Below, in pieces: positions 2,461 through 31,332 of a stretch of DNA of 32,000 bases; the first letter of the stretch is position 1, and every line of letters starts with the position of its first letter. Source of the stretch: Candidatus Saccharimonadota bacterium (GTDB taxonomy: Bacteria > Patescibacteriota > Gracilibacteria > Absconditabacterales > Absconditicoccaceae); contig OZ246420.1 in the NCBI GenBank assembly GCA_965231145.1, positions 1,050,001 to 1,082,000 of the forward strand. The letters are read 5' to 3'. The position numbers and the translations under genes are program-made. The notes beneath the pieces were generated by a model. The model made no database searches and was not told where the DNA came from. It saw only the letters and a program-made list of their open reading frames with translations.

Positions 2461-2467
2461 TACTTAT

Positions 2468-2578
2468 AAAGTGTAACATAGTGTAAAGCTTCGCGTATAA
2501 TAGTGGTGTAATTTTGGGAAGCAACTATGGATACTACCTTACACTATATTACACTACTGTTACTCAATTTTACACAAC
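2468..2578 (+). promoter_or_regulatory. gatA upstream region: GTGTAA/TTACAC word palindrome enclosing a consensus -10 box
   Basis: GTGTAA occurs at 2471, 2481 and 2506, and TTACAC at 2539, 2549 and 2570. The 17-nt arms 2470-2486 and 2539-2555 are complementary with one mismatch. A perfect TATAAT (2496-2501) lies 17 nt after GTAACA (2473-2478), between the arms. AAGGA (2581-2585) precedes ATG 2589. Confidence 0.4.
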
Positions 2579-2588
2579 CCAAGGATAT

Positions 2589-4010
2589 ATGAGCCTCACG
2601 CTAAGACAATACATAGACTGAGTAGAAAACGGATCGCTACAGCCGCAGAGTGTAATTTCTGCATACTTGGAAAAAGCAAAGGAGCACTGCGGAAAGTGAA
2701 CAAACGCACTTATTTCTGTTACCGATGAATATGCAGCACAGCACCAAAAGGATGTTGTCACATGACCATTGCATGGGGCCCCTCTCATCATTAAAGACAT
2801 TATTCTTGTTGAAGGCACTCGTACTACATGTGCGTCAAAAATGCTAGAAGATTTTGTTGCGCCCTATACAGCCACATGTCGAAAAAGACTCGAGGAAAAA
2901 GGCGCAACGCTTATCGGCAAAGCGAATATGGACGAATTTGCGATGGGAAGTGGTAACGAAAATTCGTACTTCGGACCCGTGAAGAATATCTATGGAAACA
3001 ATAAGATCCCTGGTGGAACCTCAGGAGGGTCAGCTATCGCAGTAGCTGCAGATCTCTGCCTTGCTGCGCTCGGAACAGATACTGGTGGATCTGTCAGACA
3101 ACCAGCAGCCATGTGTAATATCGTTGGACTCAAACCAACATATGGAAGAATCAGCAGATATGGTGTCCAGTCTATGTCGTCGTCATTTGATCAGGTTGGC
3201 GTACTCACAAAAACCGTAGAAGATGCTGCAATCCTCTTGGATATCGTTGCATGAGCAGATGAGAATGATGCGACCAATGTTGCACAAGATGACCATGGTA
3301 CATGGTTTGAAGCACTCAAAAAAGATTCGCTGAAGTGAGTAAAAATCGCTGTATTAAATGAGTTTTTCGCCGAAGGCGTCGATCCCCTGATCGAAAAAAA
3401 GACTCGTGAAATGATAGCAAAGGCGGAAAAACTTGGAGCGACTATCGAATATATGAATTTTCCACTTTTACAATATGTTGTTCCTACCTACTATATCATC
3501 ACTCCTGCAGAAGCATCGACCAATCTTGCAAGATTTGATGGTATAAGGTATGGGCTACAGGATGATCCTAGTAATTTTGGATCTATCCATGATTATTATT
3601 CACATATCAGAGATCAAGGATTTGGCGATGAGGTGAAAAGAAGAATCTTAGTAGGAACCTATGTACTTTCTGCTGGTTACTATGATGCATATTACCGCAA
3701 AGCGCAGCAGGTCAGAAAAAAGATCAAAGATGCTTTCGATGTGCTCTTTCAAACATATGATGTAGTATTAGGCCCAACTTCTCCTGAGCTTGCATGGACT
3801 ATCGGCGAAAGACTCGACGATCCTATCAAGAACTATCTTGCAGACATCTATACAGTACCCGCAAGTCTCTGTGGTTATCCTGCCATCAACATTCCTGGTG
3901 GTATGGTTGAAAAAGACGGGGAACCATTTTCTGTGGGTATCCAACTCATGGCTCAGCAATGGCGCGAAGATGTCTTGTTTCATGTGGGAAATCTATTATA
4001 TACTAACTAA
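2589..4010 (+). CDS. gatA: Glutamyl-tRNA(Gln)/aspartyl-tRNA(Asn) amidotransferase subunit A (GatA)
   Basis: Track ORFs 2769-3254 and 3411-4010 plus the upstream segment are one frame with 5 in-frame TGA (2619, 2697, 2763, 3252, 3336). It carries the amidase signature [13 protein letters not shown] and has GatA-like N- and C-terminal regions. Ends TAA 4008-4010. Confidence 0.9.
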
Positions 4011-4012
4011 TT

Positions 4013-4078
4013 AGCGGTTAGATTATAGATATTAGATTGCAGTACCTTGCTAACATCTAATATCCAACTCTAAGTGCC
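4013..4078. repeat. TAGAT-word palindromic element, copy A (66 bp)
   Basis: agcggTTAGATtaTAGATatTAGATtgcagtaccttgctaacATCTAAtATCCAActCTAAgtgcc. It starts 2 nt after the gatA stop and ends 36 nt before the next start. It shares architecture and length with copies at 7567, 17183, 20177 and 29966. Confidence 0.85.
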
Positions 4079-4114: not shown

Positions 4115-4573
4115 ATGGCTAGCGTTATCGTTCACAACGGAGAACATTTCGAAAGAGGGAAACTCTGGTACGTTATATTTTCCCTGACGCTCGTAGCGCT
4201 CATCATCGCTTCAGTGCTTTTCGAGAACTTCTTCGGAGCCATCATCCTCTTCCTCCTCGTCGGAGGATATATCCTTTTCGCTCTTATGAGAAACAAGAAG
4301 ATCGTACTAACAACTTCTGACCAAGGATTGATCATAGGTGAAAAGATTATTTCCCGAATGCAGCTTGTAGGACGAACTATAGAGGCAGATGCTGCCACAG
4401 CAGAATGGAAAAATCTCGTTATTATAGCAAAAGCAGATAAATTCATCTTCACACTTGACGATACGAAAAACAACATAGACTATTTCTTGGCATCCATCAG
4501 CCAAAATGTGCCCATGGTAGAAAATGTTGCTTATTCATTTACCGAGAAACTTATCAGAAAACTAAAGTTGTAG
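4115..4573 (+). CDS. Hypothetical two-helix membrane protein (152 aa)
   Basis: Uninterrupted ORF ending in TAG. Two adjacent hydrophobic helices (about residues 18-60) are followed by a soluble domain of about 90 aa. No family recognised. Confidence 0.55.
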   Translation: MASVIVHNGEHFERGKLWYVIFSLTLVALIIASVLFENFFGAIILFLLVGGYILFALMRNKKIVLTTSDQGLIIGEKIISRMQLVGRTIEADAATAEWKNLVIIAKADKFIFTLDDTKNNIDYFLASISQNVPMVENVAYSFTEKLIRKLKL

Positions 4574-4710
4574 AATCTTGTCACAAAAGCATATATCGAT
4601 CGTATCCTATAGTAAGTGGTTAACATCCCCACTTAAATCAATCCCAAGAAACAACACTCAGGAAAATGATAGAGAAAACCTATAGGTCTCTATCATTTTT
4701 TTATATACGA

Positions 4711-4730
4711 AAAAGGGGCTCCCCCTTTCC
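4711..4730 (-). terminator. Putative intrinsic terminator after the small membrane-protein gene
   Basis: Minus-sense AAGGGG-gag-CCCCTT followed by TTT, beginning 4 nt after the TAG at 4734-4736. Confidence 0.5.
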
Positions 4731-4733
4731 TCT

Positions 4734-4892
4734 CTACTTTTCGCCACCAAATGGCTTGTCTCAGCGCATAAGTCTGACCGCAACCACTACCACTGCAATA
4801 ACCAGTAATATGTGGATAAGTGCTCCACCAACACTAAATAAGAGACATAAAATCCAGATAATAAACAATATAACCGCAACTGTATAGAGCAT
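4734..4892 (-). CDS. Lmo0937-family small membrane protein (52 aa if UGA is read through)
   Basis: Below the track's length cutoff. The minus-strand translation MLYTVAVILFIIWILCLLFSVGGALIHILLVIAVVVVAVRLMRGDKPFGGEK closely matches the lmo0937-type pattern (..GG.LIHILLVIAV...). There is one in-frame TGA near the C-terminus. Plus-strand ORF 4666-4887 is its antisense shadow. Confidence 0.6.
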
Positions 4893-5124
4893 ACAGGAAA
4901 ATAAGGAAATAAATACTTCCCTATGCCTACTCCTCTAGACAGATAAATCAAGACTAAACAGTCTACCCATCCCAGTTAGAATGATTTTTCTCAATGGATT
5001 ACTCTTAAAAGCACAAGAATAACTGAGATAGTGCAGAACCTAGAATATTAGTTAATATCTACATATCCTTTGACGATCGGAATGCACCTCAAAAAATCAT
5101 AAAATAAAGAGAAAAATGAAAAAA

Positions 5125-5535
5125 TTAGAATATTCCAGCTTCTATAAGTTCAGGAATTATTATATTTTTAGTGACTGCGAGAATCGGATATTTATTATCC
5201 TCAAATTCTTCCCTAGTTATCCAAACGAATGATTCAATTTCAGCAGCAGGGATTATTTGTCCTGAAATAGTTGCTATATAAACTCTTTGTATAGTCATGA
5301 CTGATTCAGGATTGAATGGAGATGGATTTACATACTCTTTAAAGAATATTGCACTTCCCATTTTTACTCCCAGTTCTTCCTTTAGCTCTCTTTCAAGACA
5401 TTGTTCGTCTGACTCTCCCTCATCAATCTTCCCTCATGGAGTCCGTAATTCCTCATATCCTCTTCATTTAAGGAGTAAGAGTCTACCATCTTGAATAATC
5501 ATTCCCGCTATCCTTGTTCTGTATATAAACACCAT
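5125..5535 (-). CDS. NUDIX hydrolase (136 aa)
   Basis: Track ORF 5125-5361 extends in frame to ATG 5535 through 2 TGA. It has a full Nudix box, GGKIDEGESDEQCLERELKEELGV, whose first Gly (P-G-G) is TGA-encoded. Confidence 0.8.
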
Positions 5536-5701: not shown

Positions 5702-5778
5702 ACAAAGTATAAAGTCAAAAGTCCATAAAGTTAAAACTATTTATGAACTTTCTACTTTACAAACTTTATGAACTTCTT

Positions 5779-7286: not shown

Positions 7287-7538
7287 TTAGTGAGATAAAA
7301 CTCCTTTTCTTTCTATAGCTTTTTGCACCATTGCATCAGAGATACCCATACTTTTGAGTCTCGCATCAATTTTCTGCATCGCATTGATAATCCACTTTGT
7401 TTCCCCTTCTTTCTCTTTTCTTTTCAACAAAGCGATCTTCTGTTCAACAGCTTTTTTACTCTTCTCGCCAGATTTTACTCTTGCTCTGTTGAAGTTATAT
7501 AAGACGTGATTGTAATCTGATCTATTACACTTACCCAT
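7287..7538 (-). CDS. Hypothetical small basic protein (83 aa)
   Basis: Uninterrupted track ORF ending in TAA. It is Lys/Glu-rich and has no recognisable r-protein signature. Confidence 0.45.
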   Translation of the reverse strand: MGKCNRSDYNHVLYNFNRARVKSGEKSKKAVEQKIALLKRKEKEGETKWIINAMQKIDARLKSMGISDAMVQKAIERKGVLSH

Positions 7539-7566
7539 TTTTACTTATAAGCTAATAAAACTTATC

Positions 7567-7633
7567 AGCAGTTAGATGTTGTGTTTTAGATATTGGCATC
7601 TTGCGAACATCTAAAATCTATAATCTAATTGCT
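7567..7633. repeat. TAGAT-word palindromic element, copy B (67 bp)
   Basis: agcagTTAGATgttgtgttTTAGATattggcatcttgcgaacATCTAAaATCTAtaATCTAAttgct. It lies 14 nt below the rpsG stop and 28 nt above the start at 7538. Confidence 0.85.
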
Positions 7634-7647
7634 ATTTCGTTAGGGAG

Positions 7648-8118
7648 TTATTTAACGTACTTTGCAAGATATGAGAATGCTTTATTAGCTTCTGCCATCT
7701 TGTGTACTTCTTCTTTTCTCTTGATAGCAGGACCCTGATTTGAATATGCAGCCATAAGTTCTTCTGCAAGCTTCTTATACATAGGTTTTCCTTTTTTACT
7801 TCTTGCAGCGTCAAGGAGCCACTTTGAAGCGAAGAAAAGCTTCTTATATGCTTTTACTTCGAGTGGTACCTGATAAACAGCACCTCCAATTCTCTTTGAC
7901 TTTACCATGATATCTGGAGCAGCATTTTCAAGTGCCGCCTCAAGTACAGCCGAAGGATTAAGATGTCCATTTGCCTTGATCTCGTTCATTGTGTCATTGT
8001 AGATCTTAAGAGCAACTGTTCTCTTTCCTTCTTTCATGATATAATTGATGAACTTTTGAGCTTTTTGATCGCTCGTTGGAAGTCCAAGATATGCTGGCTT
8101 TTCGTACTTTTTACCCAT
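7648..8118 (-). CDS. rpsG: 30S ribosomal protein S7
   Basis: Uninterrupted track ORF with typical S7 sequence (..KRIGGAVYQVPLEV.., ..EVHKMAEANKAF). Confidence 0.95.
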   Translation of the reverse strand: MGKKYEKPAYLGLPTSDQKAQKFINYIMKEGKRTVALKIYNDTMNEIKANGHLNPSAVLEAALENAAPDIMVKSKRIGGAVYQVPLEVKAYKKLFFASKWLLDAARSKKGKPMYKKLAEELMAAYSNQGPAIKRKEEVHKMAEANKAFSYLAKYVK

Positions 8119-8242
8119 TCTTCGTAAGAAATGCTATATAATAAAAGCGTGTTGCGGACAGCCATATCCACTTGCTGCCTTCACTGGCAGGTTCTGAACC
8201 TTCATATGTTATTGTATTCTCCAAATCTAACGAATGTCTAGA

Positions 8243-10943: not shown

Positions 10944-11771
10944 ATGAGATATTATGACAGCCACACACATTTGAATAGCGATGCACTCTATCTAAACTGG
11001 AAAGAACATCTGCAAAAGTTTATTGATATATGATGAAAAGGATTGGTGAATATTTGAGTAGATGAAGAATATAATACGAAGGCGATCGAGATAGCTCGCG
11101 AAGCGAAAGATGCGAGGATGGACTGTCGAGTGAAAGCAACCATGGGATATCATCCGAGTGAAGTGTGTTTCGGAAATATTACTGAAGAAAATATTATTCA
11201 AAAAATATCTGACCTTCGTTCTCAATTCAAAAGCCTCAATTCTCAATATCTCATTGCAGTGGGAGAATGCGGCATAGATACGCACTATGAGTGAGATCCA
11301 CAGATCGAACTGCAGAAGAAATTATTTCGTATGCAATGTGAACTGGCGAAAGAATTTCAATTGCCAATCGTCATACACTCACGCGATGATTTTGAAAGTA
11401 CGTTTGATGTGATAAAAGATTTTAAAGAAGAAAAAATATATTTTCACTGCTTTGGATATAGTGCAGAGGAAATAAGAAAGCTTCAGGAATATTTTCCACA
11501 TATTCGATTTGGGTTTTGTGGAAATATAAGTTATCCGAAAGCACAGTCCCTGCGCGATGCGCTGCTCGCTTGTGATGTGAATAATATCGTCTTGGAAACA
11601 GATGCCCCTTGGCTTTCGCCACAAGCAGTGAGATGAGAAATGAATGAGCCGGCGAACGTGAAATATATTTATGAGTATATCGCACAGCTATTAGCAATGC
11701 CTTTAGAGGAGCTCTGTAACGCCGTTGAAAATAATATAAACAATTTATATAACATACAAGATAATTCGTAA
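10944..11771 (+). CDS. tatD: TatD-family metal-dependent hydrolase/DNase
   Basis: Track ORF 11331-11636 plus flanks are one frame from ATG 10944 to TAA 11769-11771, with 5 in-frame TGA (11031, 11034, 11055, 11292, 11634). Motifs: DSHTHL, GECGID, IHSRDD, HCF, ETDAPWL. Confidence 0.85.
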
Positions 11772-11796
11772 TTTTTAATTCGTAATTCGTAATTGA

Positions 11797-12279: not shown

Positions 12280-13722
12280 TTAATTCTTATGACCATAGAA
12301 CATTTTTACTTTATCTATCTCTACTGACTCTCTGTCATCGGTATATACATCTTTATTATTATCTCATGTATAAGAGATCGCATCGCTAAATGGTCTTGAA
12401 GTAACAAGAAAATTAGTAAGATATGCTGGGCTATTTGAAACATCCTTATACCACACAGAACCCCATGCATTATGGATCGTTTGCAAAGCATGCTGCGCAA
12501 AGTCACTTTTTAGCTCTGTATCCATGATCATATTAAGGATAACACTATCCGAGATTTTCTTCAGATCAGTGAAAAACTCCCTTGTCATAAGCTCTTCCGG
12601 AACCGACGTTCCTATATATGCATCGACTAGTATCGTATCGTAATGCTTTTTCTGAGCTATTGCATCTTTCAAAAAACCCCTTGCTGACTGAGGGAAAAAT
12701 GCAATCTCCTCGTGAAGCGGCTTCTGAAGAAAATATTTTTCTGCAATAGGTTTCACAGATGGATCCACATCCACCGTATCTACCTTTACTATTTCGTCCC
12801 TGCGAGCCATCTCTTCAGGATAGGTAAATCCAGCTGCTCCTATGACTAATATCTTTTTTTCTCATGACACTGCAGATAGCTTATTTCGAGAGTCAGTGAC
12901 CTCGACCGCAGAACGGACATATCCAAACCAGCTACTGTTGGTTTTGGTGTCTATAGAACTCGCATACCCACCATCCAAAAGCATGATACGAAACGTACGG
13001 TCACCACGCCACTGCTCCTGAATCTCAATATGCTGATATGGACTATCATGCGTATAGAGCGCCTCGACCTTCGGCCTTCCTATGAACAAGATTAGAGCTA
13101 AGATGAGTCCGGCAATTCCTATTCGTGGGATGCGTTTCTGGTAGATTATCATGGCAATATGACACACCAGCAACAAACCAGCGGTTAGATAGCCTACCTG
13201 CGTCACCCCAAGTGACGGAAATAAGACAGTCGTCGTCAGCACACTTCACAGAAATGAACCAAGCGTCGAGACAAAAAGGATTTTCCCGGCTGCAAGTCAC
13301 TTATTTCCGCTGGTAAGCTGGGTTATCATAGGCATCGTATGCGATGCGGCAGCAACTGGCAGAAAGAAAAACAGCAGAGCAAAGACAAAAAGCGCTGGTA
13401 TATAGCTCATTTTCTGCATAAGACCGAGCAAAAGTTCATGCTGAAGCGGGAAAACCAAGCATATATAATAGATTGCTGCTGCAAAAAGAAGCCATGAAAG
13501 CACCTTTGCAATCTTATGCTCAGACAAGCGAGCCGTCAGTTTTCCCCCATACCAATAGCCCACGGCCAAAGCAAGGAGTATAACCCCAATCACTACTGAT
13601 GTCAGTACAATGCTTGATCCCACTAAAGGCACGGCGCTTCTTAGCGCTACCAACTGCATAGCTAGCGTCGTAAAACCCTCGACAAGAACAACAAAAAGTA
13701 ACAAATATGCCATAGAAATCAT
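12280..13722 (-). CDS. Membrane-fused spermidine-synthase-like protein (polytopic N-terminal domain plus aminopropyltransferase/SAM-MTase fold)
   Basis: Track ORFs 13297-13788, 12862-13242 and 12364-12810 share one frame, continued to TAA 12280-12282, with 4 in-frame TGA (lower coordinates 13297, 13246, 12862, 12364). The N-terminal ~200 aa is hydrophobic. The C-terminal part has KILVIGAAGFTY, VDTVDVDP and YDTILVDAY. The start is uncertain: 13722 preferred, 13788 or 13713 possible. Confidence 0.7.
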
Positions 13723-16185: not shown

Positions 16186-17181
16186 ATGTACAAGAAACTG
16201 TCACTCAGCGAACTTAGCAAATTACATACAGGATTTTTTGAGCACCTACAATCACTCTACAAGAAAGAAAGATGTCAGCTTTTAAAAGAATACCTGAAGA
16301 TAGCATTTAAAGATGGGGACGATCTCTACTATTTCAGAGAGTGAAGCCCTTATTTTAGGTTAAGCAAAAAGGCAGATAGTTCTATCATCTTTGCCGACGA
16401 AGTAGAAAAGATCGAGCTACATGCATCGGCTGACGATATTATGCAATTGCACAACCTTCTGAAAGCAGAAAAAGCTCTGACAAAAAACATGAAAGCAAAC
16501 CTGAGCATCAGAGAAATCCTCGAGGAAGAATTTTCAAACAACGAATGGAGAACCATTAACGGCAAGCCATATATCGTCTACGATATCGAAACAGAAAATG
16601 TTACCAGTACGAACCTTGCGACACATCAATTTACTATAGCATATGTCATGTTCTCGGAAACAGGAGAATACAAGCTTATTACCCAAGAAAACATGAAGAA
16701 ATTTATGGATTTTCTCCTCAACTTTGATGGATATATCATTGGATTTAATCATATATGATACGACAATATCGTTATGGCCTACAATGCGTGATATAGTCAC
16801 GAAGAAATAGAAACACTCAATCATAAAAGTATCGATCTCTTTCTCTTTGTCTACCGCCTTATCCAAAGAAGAATGAGTCTTAATAAGCTTGGCGCTGCGT
16901 TGGTAGGAGCAAAAAAAACATTAGAGTCAGGCATGGAAGGAATAGCCCTCTGGAAGAAATATAAGGAAGAGGGAGACGAAAAAGCATATGCAGCGTTTAA
17001 AAAATATTGTAAGAACGATGTCACTCTTACCCACCTCATCCTCCTGTACTTCCTTAAGTACCAAAAACTTTCAGGAGAGTGACAAGACATCACCTTTGAT
17101 GAAAGCATGCTTCTTTCTCTGAGCAAAGCATCGAAAGAAGAAGCGACAAAGGTAACAGCACAACAATCTATGTTCTCGTAA
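16186..17181 (+). CDS. DEDDy-type 3'-5' exonuclease-like protein (RNase H-like fold, YprB/PolB-exo-like)
   Basis: Track ORFs 16441-16758 and 16873-17082 plus flanks are one frame from ATG 16186 to TAA 17179-17181, with 4 in-frame TGA (16342, 16756, 16789, 17080). Motifs: Exo I IVYDIETEN, Exo II IIGFNHIGYDN (its G is TGA), Exo III KYCKNDV. The first ~130 aa have no recognisable motif. Confidence 0.55.
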
Positions 17182-17182
17182 T

Positions 17183-17249
17183 AGCAATTGGATTCTAGAT
17201 TTTAGATGTTGGCAGGATGCTATAATCTAAAATCTAATATCTAACTGCC
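17183..17249. repeat. TAGAT-word palindromic element, copy C (67 bp)
   Basis: agcaatTGGATtcTAGATttTAGATgttggcaggatgctataATCTAAaATCTAAtATCTAActgcc. It starts 1 nt after the exonuclease stop and ends 21 nt before the methyltransferase start. Confidence 0.85.
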
Positions 17250-17270
17250 TCTTTATTACTATATAAGTTA

Positions 17271-18041
17271 ATGAGCTTTCTCGACGACCTTGCCTCGTAT
17301 TACGATCATGAAGCTGATAAATTTCACCACACACGCCAACGCCACTGGCCAGAATTTGACGTGCTTGTTGACGAAATAAAGACTCATTTTGCAAAAAAGA
17401 AAACACTTCGTGTGCTGGAAATATGATGCTGAAGTGGCAGGCTGTATGCTCATCTATGTAAGGCTCTACCAACAAAAACCTTCTCTTATACATGAATAGA
17501 TATTTCTAAAAACCTTATCCAGAAAGCAAAAGCAGAATATCCAGACACAACATGGAAAGTGGGGAACATGACAGAATTTCTACAGGGTGTAAAACAAGAA
17601 GAATATGATCTGGTAATAGGTATAGCTAGTTTTCATCACCTTCCCTCATCGCGCATGAGAATCACCACAGCAAACCATATCTACAGAGCACTTTCTTACG
17701 AAGGCATTTGTTTTTTAACCAATCGGTCGGACAGCGAGCGATTTCGCAAAAGATTTCGCAAAAGCATTGTGCTAGCGCGACTTAAGAGCGTAGTTTCTCT
17801 GGGCATTTACAGACCAAACGATCTTTTTCTCCCATGGAAAAACGACACACACAAAAAGGTCTTTCATAGATATTATCATATATTTTCGCCTCAAGAGCTT
17901 CTGAATATCGCAAAGATAAGCTGATTTTGAGCCATGGAACAGTTCTATATTACCAGTGAATGAGAAAGGACTCCGGACAAGAAACATAGCAGAAACCTCT
18001 GCAGCATCCGAAAAAAGTCTGTCTTTCTCAATCAATCATAA
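17271..18041 (+). CDS. Class I SAM-dependent methyltransferase (small-molecule/RNA type)
   Basis: Track ORF 17559-17924 plus flanks are one frame from ATG 17271 to TAA 18039-18041, with 6 in-frame TGA (17424, 17430, 17493, 17922, 17928, 17961). Motif I is VLEIGCGSGRL with two TGA-encoded Gly. The post-I/II region reads DLVIGIASFHHL. No (D/N)PP(Y/F) DNA-MTase motif is seen. Confidence 0.8.
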
Positions 18042-18826: not shown

Positions 18827-20152
18827 TTATACTCTGTCATATTTGTGCATGAGAAGCTCTGACTGAGCTTTGTTGACGATCTCCTGTACAACACCTACGA
18901 TGATGATGATACCCGAACCAGTTACGATAACTGGAAGCGTACCAAGCGTTTGTGTGAGTTGCTGGATAAATGGAATGTAAGTAAGTACATATGAGTAGAT
19001 ACCTACGAGACCAAGACCAATCCCTCCCCAAAGGCAGAGATGAGAAAGTACTTTGTTCAAGTATTTCGCTGTTTCTGCTCCTGGTCTAATACCTGGTGTA
19101 AATCCGCCTCTCTTTTGGATATTGTCTGCGATCTTCTCAGGATTGAACACGATCATCGTATAGAAGAACGTGAATGCGATGATAAGAAGGAAATAGACAA
19201 CAATAGCGAGAATAGAAGGCTGTTGATTGTAGATATTAAAGTTTCTTTCTATCCACTGAGCAACCTGCATAACAGTCTGGTTTTGTGTACCAAACTTAAT
19301 CACAAGCTGAGAAAGAAGGTATGGGAATGTCGCAAATGCAATAGCGAAGATGATAGGGATCATTCCTACTGGATTGAGGGGGATAGGAAGCGATGAGCTT
19401 TCCTGAACCTTTCCTTGTTTCGCGTAGATGATAGGTATCTCCTTGATCGTTTTGAGAAGGAAGATCGAAAGGATGATAAGACCCAATACGATAATAAGCA
19501 TGAAAAGAACTACGCTTATCCAGTCACTTCCTGCAGCAGATATGTCATTGTATACCTTAGAGACGATACCTGAAACGATAGAAGCAAAGATGATAAGAGA
19601 AATACCATTGCTGAGACCTTTTTCCGTAATACGCTCACCGATGTACATAAGCATGATGGCTCCGATAGCAAGCACACCAGCAGCCATACATACAAGACCA
19701 AAATTAGTTGTATCTAAGAGCTGACCTCCAAGAAGGTAGTTCATGAAGTATGTCATACCAATACCCTGAAGGAATGCGAGAGGGAAAGCAATCCATCTTG
19801 TATACTGCTGGATCTTCATCGTTCCCTGCTCACCTTGTTCCTGAAGCTCTTCAAGCGAAGGAATAATAGCAGTAAGAAGCTGCATGATGATCGAAGCATT
19901 GATGTATGCCCCAAGACCCACCGCAATGATAGAAAATTGATCAAGCGATCCTCCAAGAAGCATGGCAAAGTACTGGAGACCTCCGGCATTTCCCAGAGAT
20001 GTTTGGCTTAGCAGGTTTGTAATATTAACAAATGGAACCGGCATAAACACAAGCAATCTGTAAAGCGCCAAAAACACTAACGTCCACAATATCTTTGTTC
20101 TGATAGTCTTACTACGAAATGCATCACCGATACTCGTTAATATATTGCTCAT
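18827..20152 (-). CDS. secY: Preprotein translocase subunit SecY
   Basis: Uninterrupted 441-aa track ORF. It is a 10-helix protein with a typical SecY N-terminus (..LRKILFTL-like KILWTLVFLALYRL) and sits in the canonical position after rplO. Confidence 0.95.
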   Translation of the reverse strand: MSNILTSIGDAFRSKTIRTKILWTLVFLALYRLLVFMPVPFVNITNLLSQTSLGNAGGLQYFAMLLGGSLDQFSIIAVGLGAYINASIIMQLLTAIIPSLEELQEQGEQGTMKIQQYTRWIAFPLAFLQGIGMTYFMNYLLGGQLLDTTNFGLVCMAAGVLAIGAIMLMYIGERITEKGLSNGISLIIFASIVSGIVSKVYNDISAAGSDWISVVLFMLIIVLGLIILSIFLLKTIKEIPIIYAKQGKVQESSSLPIPLNPVGMIPIIFAIAFATFPYLLSQLVIKFGTQNQTVMQVAQWIERNFNIYNQQPSILAIVVYFLLIIAFTFFYTMIVFNPEKIADNIQKRGGFTPGIRPGAETAKYLNKVLSHLCLWGGIGLGLVGIYSYVLTYIPFIQQLTQTLGTLPVIVTGSGIIIIVGVVQEIVNKAQSELLMHKYDRV

Positions 20153-20176: not shown

Positions 20177-20243
20177 AGCAATCAGATTATAGATTGTAGA
20201 TGTCGGCTTGCTGCTAAAATCTAACATCTATCATCTAATTGCT
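20177..20243. repeat. TAGAT-word palindromic element, copy D (67 bp)
   Basis: agcaatCAGATtaTAGATtgTAGATgtcggcttgctgctaaaATCTAAcATCTAtcATCTAAttgct. It lies 15 nt below the rplO stop and 24 nt above the secY start. Confidence 0.85.
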
Positions 20244-20258
20244 ATATGTAACATATAT

Positions 20259-21471: not shown

Positions 21472-21527
21472 GTTACTTATATACTATAAAACATAAAATG
21501 CATGTAGATATTGATTGCTATAATGAA

Positions 21528-26851: not shown

Positions 26852-26968
26852 TACTTATAGACTATAAAGCTAAATATATTACATAATTCATAATTCAGAG
26901 ATCAAGTTCAGAATGAAATACGGAGTAGATCCTTATTTAATTTTGCTCTCTAATTTCTGCTTTTTGAA

Positions 26969-29601: not shown

Positions 29602-29922
29602 CTAGAATACTTTCACCTCTACTGAAACACCAACAGGTATTGAGAGATTTTGAAGATACTCTATCGTTTTTGCTCCAGTTTCCACAACATCAATAAGTCT
29701 TGCGTATGTTGTTCTCTCAAATTGTTCTCTTGCGTTTTTATACACAAAATTTGACCTGAGCACCGTATAAAGCTTTCTTTGCTTAGGAAGTGGTATAGGT
29801 CCCTTCATCGTTGCTCACGATTTCACAAGGAGCCCTATAATCTTGCTCGCAGAACTTTCGAGCATCTTTACATCATAGCTTTTAAGCTTTATCCTAAGCT
29901 TTGGAGATTTTACTTCTGCCAT
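29602..29922 (-). CDS. rpsJ: 30S ribosomal protein S10
   Basis: Track ORF 29602-29808 extends in frame to ATG 29922 (MAEVKSPKLRIKLKSYD...) through one TGA (29815-29817). That TGA encodes the Gly of KSGATMKGPIPLP. Confidence 0.95.
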
Positions 29923-29965: not shown

Positions 29966-30032
29966 AGCACTTAGATGCTAGATGTTAGATTATGACATAC
30001 TGTCAACCTCTAACATCTCCGATCTAAATGCT
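29966..30032. repeat. TAGAT-word palindromic element, copy E (67 bp)
   Basis: agcacTTAGATgcTAGATgtTAGATtatgacatactgtcaaccTCTAAcATCTccgATCTAAatgct. It lies 12 nt below the tuf stop and 43 nt above the rpsJ start. Confidence 0.85.
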
Positions 30033-30044
30033 ATTATTAATGAA

Positions 30045-31217
30045 TTATCCGATAATCTTAGTAATAACTCCGGCACCTACAGTTCTACCACCTTCACGGA
30101 TAGCAAATCTGAGACCTTCTTCCATAGCGATCTTGTAGATAAGTTCTACTGAGATCTTAGCATTGTCACCAGGCATAATCATTTCTCTTCCCTCCATACT
30201 TACAGTTCCAGTTACGTCAGTTGTTCTTACGAAGAACTGAGGCTTGTAACCAGCCATAAATGGAGTATGTCTTCCACCTTCTTCCTTCTTCAATACGTAT
30301 ACCTCAGCTTCAAATTTGCTGAAAGGCTTAACAGATCCTGGCTTAGCAAGAACTTGTCCTCTTTCTACCTGGTCTTTTTCAATACCTCTGATAAGAAGAC
30401 CAACGTTCATACCTGCATCAGCAGACTGATGTTGCTTGTGAAACATTTCAACTCCTGTTACTACTGTTGGAGTTGGCTCGTCCTTAAGACCAACGATTTC
30501 GATAGGATCATTCATATTGATAACACCTCTTTCAATTCTACCCGTAACCACAGTACCTCTACCCTTAATAGAGAATACGTCTTCAACTGGCATAAGGAAA
30601 GGCTTAGCTGTATCACGAACTGGATCAGGAATGTAGCTATCAAGAGCAGCGAGAAGATCCCACACACACTTAGCAGCACCAGCTTCGTCAGTTGAGTTTT
30701 CAACCGCCTTAAGAGCCGAACCTCTGATGATAGGAGCGTTAGCACCATCAAATCCGTTCTTAGTAAGGAGATCTCTGATTTCCTCTTCTACGAGGTCAAC
30801 CATATCTGCATCCTCCACCATATCACACTTATTGAGGAACACAACGATGTATGGAACATTTACCTGCTTAGCAAGAAGTACGTGCTCTCTTGTTTGAGGC
30901 ATTGGTCCGTCTGTAGCAGCAACCACGAGGATAGCTCCGTCCATCTGAGCAGCACCAACGATCATGTTCTTGATATAGTCGGCATGTCCTGGACAGTCGA
31001 TGTGAGCGTAGTGTCTTGTGTCTGTTTCATACTCTACGTGTCTTGTGTTGATAGTAATACCTCTTGCTTTTTCTTCTGGAGCATTATCGATATCACCATA
31101 GTTTTGCGCCTTTGCAAAACCTTTTGTAGCAGCTACTGTTGTGATAGCAGCAGTCAAAGTTGTTTTACCATGATCTACGTGACCGATGGTACCTACATTA
31201 ACGTGTACTTTAGACAT
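30045..31217 (-). CDS. tuf: Elongation factor Tu
   Basis: [21 protein letters not shown]... is unmistakable EF-Tu, 391 aa with no in-frame TGA. The track ORF's 58-codon N-terminal extension runs into tRNA-Pro and is rejected. Confidence 0.97.
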
Positions 31218-31332
31218 GTCGGATGTATAAGTATAAAAGATAAATATAAGATCCATCGCTGAAGCGACATAACGATCAAGATTCTTCCTTATCGTCATGT
31301 CGCCCCTTCGATATCGAGTGCTGTATAGAATT

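Follow-up and report, generated by a model that had tools for sequence, protein, structure and literature searches.

A rapidly changing family of heptad-built hairpin elements in the intercistronic spacers of an SR1/Absconditabacteria-like bacterium

What are the short palindromes that recur between the genes of this bacterium, and how did they come to lie where they do? The 32 kb of contig OZ246420.1 analysed here (positions 1,050,001 to 1,082,000; hereafter the window, to which all copy counts refer, rather than to the whole genome) carry five imperfect palindromes of 66-67 bp made of repeated TAGAT words and their complements, first reported in a preliminary description made from the letters alone. 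They lie at the coordinates reported there, and a repeat finder also groups them, over about 69 aligned nt. The count of five full copies stands, yet a sixth, internally deleted copy had been overlooked. In window positions, the copies are as follows.

Copy A: 4012..4078, + strand, between a GatA-like amidase gene (2586..4010) and hyp152 (4115..4573); sense 5′ arm TAGCGGT TAGATTA TAGATAT TAGAT
Copy B: 7567..7634, - strand, between S7 (7648..8118) and hyp83 (7287..7538); sense 5′ arm TAGCAAT TAGATTA TAGATTT TAGAT
Copy C: 17182..17249, + strand, between an RNase_H_2-like gene (16186..17181) and a methyltransferase gene (17271..18041); its head TAG comes immediately after the TAA stop
Copy D: 20177..20244, - strand, between L15 (20259..20705) and SecY (18827..20152)
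Copy E: 29966..30033, - strand, between EF-Tu (30045..31217) and S10 (29602..29922), upstream of the conserved S10 leader
Relic with internal deletion: 21499..21521, - strand, in the L18|S5 spacer, ATAGCAAT|CAATATCTACATGCA

These elements form a multicopy, non-random repeat family. A 21-position pattern derived from the five full copies, allowed up to two mismatches, matches the window nine times; these matches fall at five loci and, the element being a palindrome, four of the loci are matched on both strands. In 100 dinucleotide-preserving shuffles it finds no match, and the number of copies expected by chance is none. The covariance model that the preliminary description had proposed as a check was built from the five window copies (R1) and run unfiltered: it recovers exactly these five, at 75-90 bits, with no additional degenerate full-length copy in the window. 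The next-best match, of 13.8 bits at 2499-2561, was rejected as a further copy, being a different hairpin with GTGTAA words; this GTGTAA/TTACAC-word hairpin occupies 2461-2585 (+), before the amidase gene. The relic retains the head and the last heptad of the element, and its deletion runs between two CAAT/CAAC microhomologies.

On the sense strand of the adjacent genes, the 5′ arm of the element consists of four heptads, TAGCAAT-TAGATNN-TAGATNN-TAGAT, to which the 3′ arm is complementary, and the apex is a small stem-loop of the GGCA-GGA-UGC type. Two details of the preliminary description are thereby corrected: the words do not follow each other at 7-8 nt but with a period of exactly 7 nt, and the supposed separate AGC clamp is part of the fourth heptad, whose head word is TAGCAAT. 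Outside the words the copies are constant in length and share the head ATAGCAAT and the apex GTTGGCAGGATGC, features that favour copying over independent local origin. The two arms, with 74-83% complementarity across about 31 nt, thus amount to terminal inverted repeats, as expected of miniature inverted-repeat transposable elements (MITEs). Each copy is predicted to fold into one long imperfect hairpin, in agreement with what had been drawn on paper, with z-scores of -3.9 to -7.0 against shuffled sequences.

Syntenic regions of relatives, obtained via contigs encoding SecY and S7 homologues, tell how these copies behave over short evolutionary distances. In order of SecY identity to the window, these contigs are L013 and L017 (98.9%), L014 and L019 (96%), L009 (91%) and L008, L010, L011 and L012 (88-90%). 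Close relatives hold some of the copies and lack others, and in them copies are also relocated, replaced or internally deleted: by copying, the unit has reached spacers that differ between sister genomes, and it is subject to rapid conversion, deletion and replacement. Had the same spacers carried the same sequence in all relatives, the preliminary description argued, an old conserved leader would have been the better explanation; the orthologous spacers do not share the same sequence. At site A, L017 has a diverged copy, 66% identical to that of the window and with an apex like that of the window's copy C, and L019 has an empty spacer of 29 nt. At site B, an identical copy is found in L016, a short TCGAT-word hairpin in L017 (10472-10510) and an AACG/CGTT-word hairpin in L019. 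Site C is occupied by a diverged ortholog in L014 and by a TCGAT/TCGA-word hairpin instead in L013 (~12897-12932); L008, L009 and L010 have no hairpin there, the spacer being short in L008 and L010. At site D, the ortholog of L014 has TAGAT words and that of L013 (9907-9976) combines TAGAT-type outer ends with inner TCGAT words on both arms, L008, L009, L010 and L012 carry an unrelated GTTCATAAGG...CTTTATGAAC hairpin, and L011 has none. At site E, L013 has a copy with a re-paired apex, in a region where 520 nt match the window at 94.6% identity; two other unrelated hairpins, one in L008 and L012 and one in L011, lie upstream of the conserved S10 leader. As judged from these sequence comparisons, divergence between orthologous copies far exceeds that of the flanking DNA.

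Other spacers complete this picture. The L18|S5 spacer, which in the window holds only the deletion relic, contains a full 76-nt copy in L013 (57 bits) and no copy in L014. L014 and L019 have extra copies after L28 and near a Mur ligase gene, absent from the window, and L009 has three related copies with TAGATTA/TGGATTA words, at L4|L23, L18|S5 and S5|L15, and none at the sites used in the window. L008, L010, L011 and L012, compared over as much as 21 kb of syntenic sequence, have no copy. The most unusual observation is a concerted change of words: between the window and L013/L017, TAGAT is switched to TCGAT on both arms at three orthologous sites (B, C and D).

Moreover, hairpin families of other kinds occupy the same spacers in relatives, as the sites above illustrate. 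One further dispersed family, with GTTCATAA...TTATGGAC words, lies in the L28|tRNA-Lys spacer of the window (5703-5778, -; dG -20.7, z -4.4) and also fills the L15|SecY spacer in L008, L009, L010 and L012. In L019, the L28 spacer holds a TAGAT-type copy instead of the GTTCATAA-type hairpin.

The position of the copies had been described as intergenic, between co-directional genes, and this holds for all five once the right genetic code is applied. The window reads in genetic code 25 (TGA=Gly), and re-translation gives a coherent gene map. This code is needed because the S10 gene (29602-29922, -) has an in-frame TGA where other S10 proteins have a conserved glycine; many window genes contain 1-8 such codons, and open reading frame (ORF) calls made with table 11 split them, as do the ORF calls on the Logan contigs. 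SR1/Absconditabacteria proteins, that of Absconditicoccus praedator among them, are 62-63% identical to the window SecY, which identifies the host as an SR1-like bacterium of the Candidate Phyla Radiation (CPR). DNA identical to the window is present in the Logan assemblies of ERR4405439/40. In the order A to E, the distance from the stop codon to the element is 2, 14, 1, 15 and 12 nt, and that from the element to the next start codon is 36, 28, 21, 24 and 43 nt. Spacers of the ribosomal-protein operons devoid of the element are mostly 28-56 nt long and unstructured, so that the element resembles an insertion of about 67 bp.

It had been stated that the functional strand could not be inferred. 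Tentatively it can, as every informative copy has its TAGC head on the sense strand of the genes, facing the upstream gene: the T of TAGC is on that strand in A-E and in the L18|S5 copy of L013, and the end opposite the head reads GCC or GCT plus any base. TAG stands at 18 of the 20 register positions of the sense 5′ arm, against 11/20 in the antisense 5′ arm (Fisher p = 0.03). The sense strand also scores higher in eight of nine copies outside the training set and, when stem mismatches are read on this strand, G.U (26) outnumber A.C (14). The cumulative GC skew drops steadily over nearly the whole window, which places all copies on one replichore; yet A and C, with their genes on the + strand, are inverted relative to B, D and E, with genes on the - strand, so that orientation tracks transcription and not replication. 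The data thus suggest that orientation follows transcription, on statistics drawn from about six independent copies. Folding energy, for its part, does not decide the strand: C, D and E fold more stably on the sense strand, A and B on the antisense strand.

To see whether pairing as such is constrained, 12 copies in sense orientation were aligned with MAFFT without reference to the structure, and 500 column shuffles served as control. In this alignment 83% of the cells pair, and pairing falls to 27-42% when the register is slid. Changes on both sides affect 13 of the 28 pairs, compared to 6.7 +/- 1.6 in the shuffles, none of which reaches 13. Arm substitutions that failed to compensate in a larger set of copies would have spoken against the family as first described; in these 12 copies they are compensatory more often than in shuffles. 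The apex of copy E offers an example: the window and L013 differ there at six positions, two pairs being fully compensated and two becoming G.U, on the sense strand only.

Taken together, we hold with moderate confidence that this is a young, lineage-specific hairpin element of the kind of REPs (repetitive extragenic palindromes), REPINs or MITEs, dispersed by copying, co-transcribed with its neighbours, probably acting as an intercistronic RNA hairpin and perhaps mobilised in trans. Copies disperse by copying and then change fast through conversion between copies, slippage of heptads, microhomology deletion and decay; they are retained nowhere but in short transcribed spacers immediately 3′ of a stop codon, their TAGC head directed toward the upstream gene. 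Once co-transcribed, the element would form in the mRNA an AU-rich imperfect hairpin of about 25-28 bp, which may act as an intercistronic 3′-end barrier or an RNase III-type processing site, as do REP, Correia and T7 hairpins. Such a function would be dispensable and could be taken over by other hairpin families; that such families stand in the same spacers of relatives is in line with a role that is useful yet replaceable. Mobilisation might be ensured by a trans-acting enzyme recognising the hairpin, which is a guess; since no target-site duplication is visible, a single-strand transposition of the HUH type, like that of RAYTs (REP-associated tyrosine transposases), would fit.

Several points weigh against this reading. 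The orientation statistics are based on about six independent copies, as mentioned. The apparent compensation could come from conversion between copies, and the 3′ half of the L013 E′ apex indeed equals the C-type apex. Several copies of relatives are decaying and no longer fold better than shuffled sequences (L017 A′, z = +0.5; the L18|S5 copy of L013, z = -1.1), and some orthologous spacers lack any hairpin (the D site of L011 and the A site of L019); any RNA function must therefore be weak or dispensable, and pairing is a property of the young element that is not kept everywhere. No transposase is found among the Pfam matches of ten window ORFs, taken from those that do not encode ribosomal proteins, and genes called in the relatives' loci are likewise without a transposase Pfam family. 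No direct duplication is visible at the six copies, the empty-site spacers being too diverged to fix the junctions, and neither the window nor the relatives' loci contain a parent insertion sequence (IS) with the same ends.

Among known systems, REPs and REPINs share most with the window family, whose five copies and relic, all intergenic within 32 kb, are likewise short, extragenic, multicopy palindromes. On both sides these are imperfect (~35-110 bp) and lineage-specific, show no visible target-site duplication and have an asymmetric conserved 5′ head beside the stem. In mRNA, REPs and REPINs adopt a folded structure able to stabilise the cistron upstream of them, and folding is a predicted property of the window family too. 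The differences lie in the head, GTAG/GTGG in REPs but (A/T)TAGC and partly inside the stem here, and in the stems, which are GC-rich in REPs and AU-rich heptad arrays here. REPINs are mobilised by a RAYT, a Y1 HUH transposase (PF01797) whose gene is usually flanked by REPs and of which none is seen in the window. They have been described mainly in Proteobacteria (PMC3116915; bioRxiv 10.1101/2022.05.22.493013), whereas the present host is a CPR bacterium of about 1.1 Mb. MITEs such as the Neisseria Correia elements, the pneumococcal RUP/BOX and the Rickettsia RPE are, like the window family, non-autonomous inverted-repeat elements whose presence varies among close relatives and which are co-transcribed, as the window copies probably are. 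Correia elements are, in addition, targets of RNase III. The window element, at 67 bp, is much shorter than these MITEs and forms, as a whole, a single hairpin; no TA or other target duplication was detected for it and no parent IS with matching ends is known. Phage T7-type intercistronic RNase III sites and 3′ stabiliser hairpins have in common with the window copies a long imperfect stem, at least 20 bp in length and interrupted by internal loops, between co-directional cistrons, by functional analogy only: the sequences are unrelated, and the window copies are repeated and turn over rapidly, any role of RNase III being putative here. The view that REP/BIME, Correia and BOX elements are analogies only is therefore upheld, as is the statement that no described family could be recognised: searches of Rfam, phage, plasmid and literature sources gave no match. 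At the Rfam gathering threshold only tRNAs pass in the window, and a permissive run yields no family but sub-threshold matches to miRNA hairpins around copy C. Phage, plasmid and viral-contig searches return nothing beyond a chance 26-nt match, and we found in the literature no palindromic repeat family described in SR1/Absconditabacteria.

The heptad construction points to a different comparison, with heptanucleotide repeats of the type of short tandemly repeated repetitive (STRR) sequences. Both have a 7-nt period, are intergenic, including in ribosomal-protein operons, occur as several word families per genome, keep the ability to form hairpins although spacer sequences vary, and show a patchy cross-phylum occurrence with no known mechanism (PMC4679880). 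This comparison also draws on the title of Jackman & Mulligan 1995, as cited in PMC4284476. Unlike STRR-type repeats, the window family has only 3-4 imperfect heptads per arm, equal in length in all five copies, and constitutes a unit of fixed length with conserved head and apex that recurs whole at different loci. Slippage is seen in related elements, namely L003, L013 D′ and L065. We conclude that the elements are of the kind of short palindromic intergenic repeats, and that their heptad construction ties them to STRR-like repeats.

The heptad words also feed the alternative that nothing moves at all. In-place slippage of heptanucleotides with inverted duplication, as for STRRs or long simple sequence repeats (LSSRs), would then have created each palindrome, the similarity between loci being convergence or conversion. 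The spacers of this clade do hold words of many kinds (TAGAT, TCGAT, AACG, GTGTAA/TGTGAA, AAAACYT, TAATTCG, AATTACG), the D copy of L013 has TAGAT-type outer ends around TCGAT words, slipped arrays exist in Pseudidiomarina L003 and in the metagenome locus L065, and among the long simple repeats of bacteria heptamers are reportedly the most common, with no mechanism given (PMC4679880, citing Mrazek 2007). We nevertheless find this account unlikely, as the window copies are constant in length and have in common a head and an apex that are not repeats, and as sisters have copies in new spacers while the orthologous spacers are short and empty (C in L008 and L010, A in L019), a situation hard to obtain without copying of the whole unit. 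Another reading, quite unlikely in our opinion, regards heptad hairpins as a distinct, actively homogenised class, whose words would be written, converted and re-paired on both arms by a dedicated mechanism working in a 7-nt register, possibly a hairpin-templated copy/repair system or an oligomeric nucleic-acid-binding protein. If true, it would explain the change from TAGAT to TCGAT at three orthologous sites despite 98.9% identical SecY, the nearly identical TAGC-head TAG-heptad palindromes of a CPR bacterium, Pseudidiomarina and other Gram-negative metagenomic bacteria, and the patchy distribution of STRR-like heptamers.

Other alternatives concern the function of the element. Elements that directly follow stop codons could be atypical attenuators or terminators, at which RNA polymerase stops or pauses after tuf, L15 or S7. 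Runs of T5-T7 follow D and its orthologs, a short TTT follows the unrelated D-site hairpin of L008, L009, L010 and L012, and T-rich tails follow the L18|S5 copy of L013 and the L28 copy of L019. Yet, as had been noted, only D among the window copies has a T-run directly after the stem, the other four lacking one at the stem base, and the conclusion that they are not ordinary intrinsic terminators is borne out by a terminator scan, which calls none of the five; the combination of a short GC-rich stem with a direct T-run is not what the family displays. The clear terminators of this organism, found after RseP, DUF1003, NUDIX and SecY and between methyltransferase and DCD, have GC-rich stems of 5-11 bp with T-runs, against AU-rich stems of 25-28 bp here, and the copies lie within essential ribosomal-protein operons. 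We regard attenuation as distinctly improbable. Very improbable is a riboregulator in which an oligomeric RNA-binding protein would read UAG at a 7-nt register and open or lock the hairpin. HutP reportedly recognises (UAG-N4)3, and the sense 5′ arm, (UAGNNNN)4, with UAG at 18/20 positions, has this register; the head UAG is kept in A and C where its partner is lost, and the TAG register recurs in Pseudidiomarina and L040 elements. However, the register is not conserved across orthologs: at B, C and D, TCGAT/TCGA words in a relative with 98.9% identical SecY keep the hairpin and not the UAG; in addition, neighbouring genes are functionally unrelated and no candidate binding protein was identified. 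A function at the DNA level, as uptake signal, array for nucleoid or regulator proteins, or cruciform, with incidental hairpin potential, seems to us extremely doubtful. Paired uptake sequences of Neisseria and Haemophilus sit after genes and resemble these inverted word arrays, and three heptads make 21 bp, about two turns of B-DNA; but outside the elements TAGAT word pairs show no enrichment (4 vs 4.4 expected), which led us to reject an uptake signal, orientation tracks transcription, G.U outnumber A.C on the sense strand, and words differ between close relatives. Two more ideas were also rejected. The scan gave no sense-strand promoter-like site in or beside the copies. As for an all-frame stop-codon module, UAG with a period of 7 falls in all three frames, but relatives use words without stop codons, which discards it as the main function.

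The architecture is not unique to the window. The 21-position pattern, scanned over one genome per species (185,579 species), matches only in three Pseudidiomarina species, P. woesei, P. tainanensis and P. donghaiensis, at five loci (L001-L005) that hold a palindromic family with up to 3 copies per 8 kb and a consensus of roughly GCGATATTAGCTATTAGATATTAGATATTAGATCTGATGTTT...TCTAATATCTAATATCCAATAGCTAATATCGC. R1 finds further, unselected copies in these loci, at 33-40 bits. These palindromes are longer and have a TAGC head and ATTAGAT/ATTGGAT heptads as in the window family, but differ by an outer GCGATAT clamp and another conserved apex; that of L003, which adjoins a tRNA gene, has a slipped (ATATCCA)n arm. 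In metagenomes, a one-arm pattern picked up no relative of the window; its matches were in unrelated bacteria, as TTAG-heptad hairpins or arrays. L040 and L060 carry TTAGATG/TTAGCAA words between co-directional ORFs, their nearest named homologues being Methylobacter proteins at about 56%; L034, L057 and L023 have related arrays in DNA with a GC content of up to 0.63; L065 contains long (TAGATGT)n arrays; and in L020 TTAG-heptad arrays stand beside TCAGTTA arrays, the reverse complement of TAACTGA repeats. The latter are known from Beggiatoaceae, Cyanobacteria and Bacteroidetes (PMC4679880); they are direct repeats just upstream of starts, as opposed to the inverted window family just downstream of stops. 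Heptamer-built structured spacers have been described in cyanobacteria, and according to a review stem-loops at nif processing sites stabilise transcripts. The element belongs to a broader, poorly understood set of heptanucleotide-built structured spacers. Other words of this length are found in the window itself, in an AAAACYT-word hairpin after a pilin-like gene (623-708, +) and in four direct TAATTCG repeats between the TatD and glyoxalase genes (11762-11795, +); spacers of relatives hold TGTGAAA, AATTACG, AGATAAA and AATTTTG arrays.

CPR/Patescibacteria genomes are regarded as streamlined and repeat-poor. With about one copy per 6 kb, including inside ribosomal-protein operons, the window family indicates that miniature repeats can invade and turn over fast even there. 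The same spacer, full, hybrid, deleted, replaced or empty in sister genomes, makes a natural time series that can be used to follow the birth, conversion and loss of palindromic repeats. These spacers bear on whether operons in this lineage need hairpins for mRNA processing or stability, and on the unexplained bacterial preference for heptanucleotide repeats. In practical terms, gene callers set to code 11 break up the genes of these genomes and would put such elements in the wrong place.

Some other features of these spacers deserve mention. A motif, TTTATTAG(T/C)(A/T)TATAAGT(A/T)A, recurs with its end 0-2 nt before start codons, for example at 7539-7565, 17250-17270, 21472-21495 and 26852-26875, just upstream of ATG, and also in relatives at spacers without the element; its role may be that of a promoter for leaderless mRNAs, or of an initiation signal of non-Shine-Dalgarno type. 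The S12|S7 spacer (8119-8242, -; 124 nt) contains a structured segment (GGTTCAGAACCTGCCAGTGAAGGCAGCAAGTGGATATGGCTGTCCGC...) nearly identical in L017, a conservation unusual among spacers of this clade; it may be an S7 leader or a regulatory RNA. The tRNA-Pro|EF-Tu spacer (31218-31332, -) has a very stable hairpin (-35 kcal/mol) in the tuf leader, and 551 nt without genes separate two convergent genes at 4574-5124; Rfam has no family in either region. Within the latter, a strong bidirectional terminator-like hairpin (~4660-4705) is conserved in L017. Finally, two relatives have between the M50 protease and DUF1003 genes a 589-aa ORF without Pfam match that is absent from the window (L017 6732-8501; L011 20996-end); in L017 it is adjoined by a gene of the 23S_rRNA_IVP family (5007-5303).

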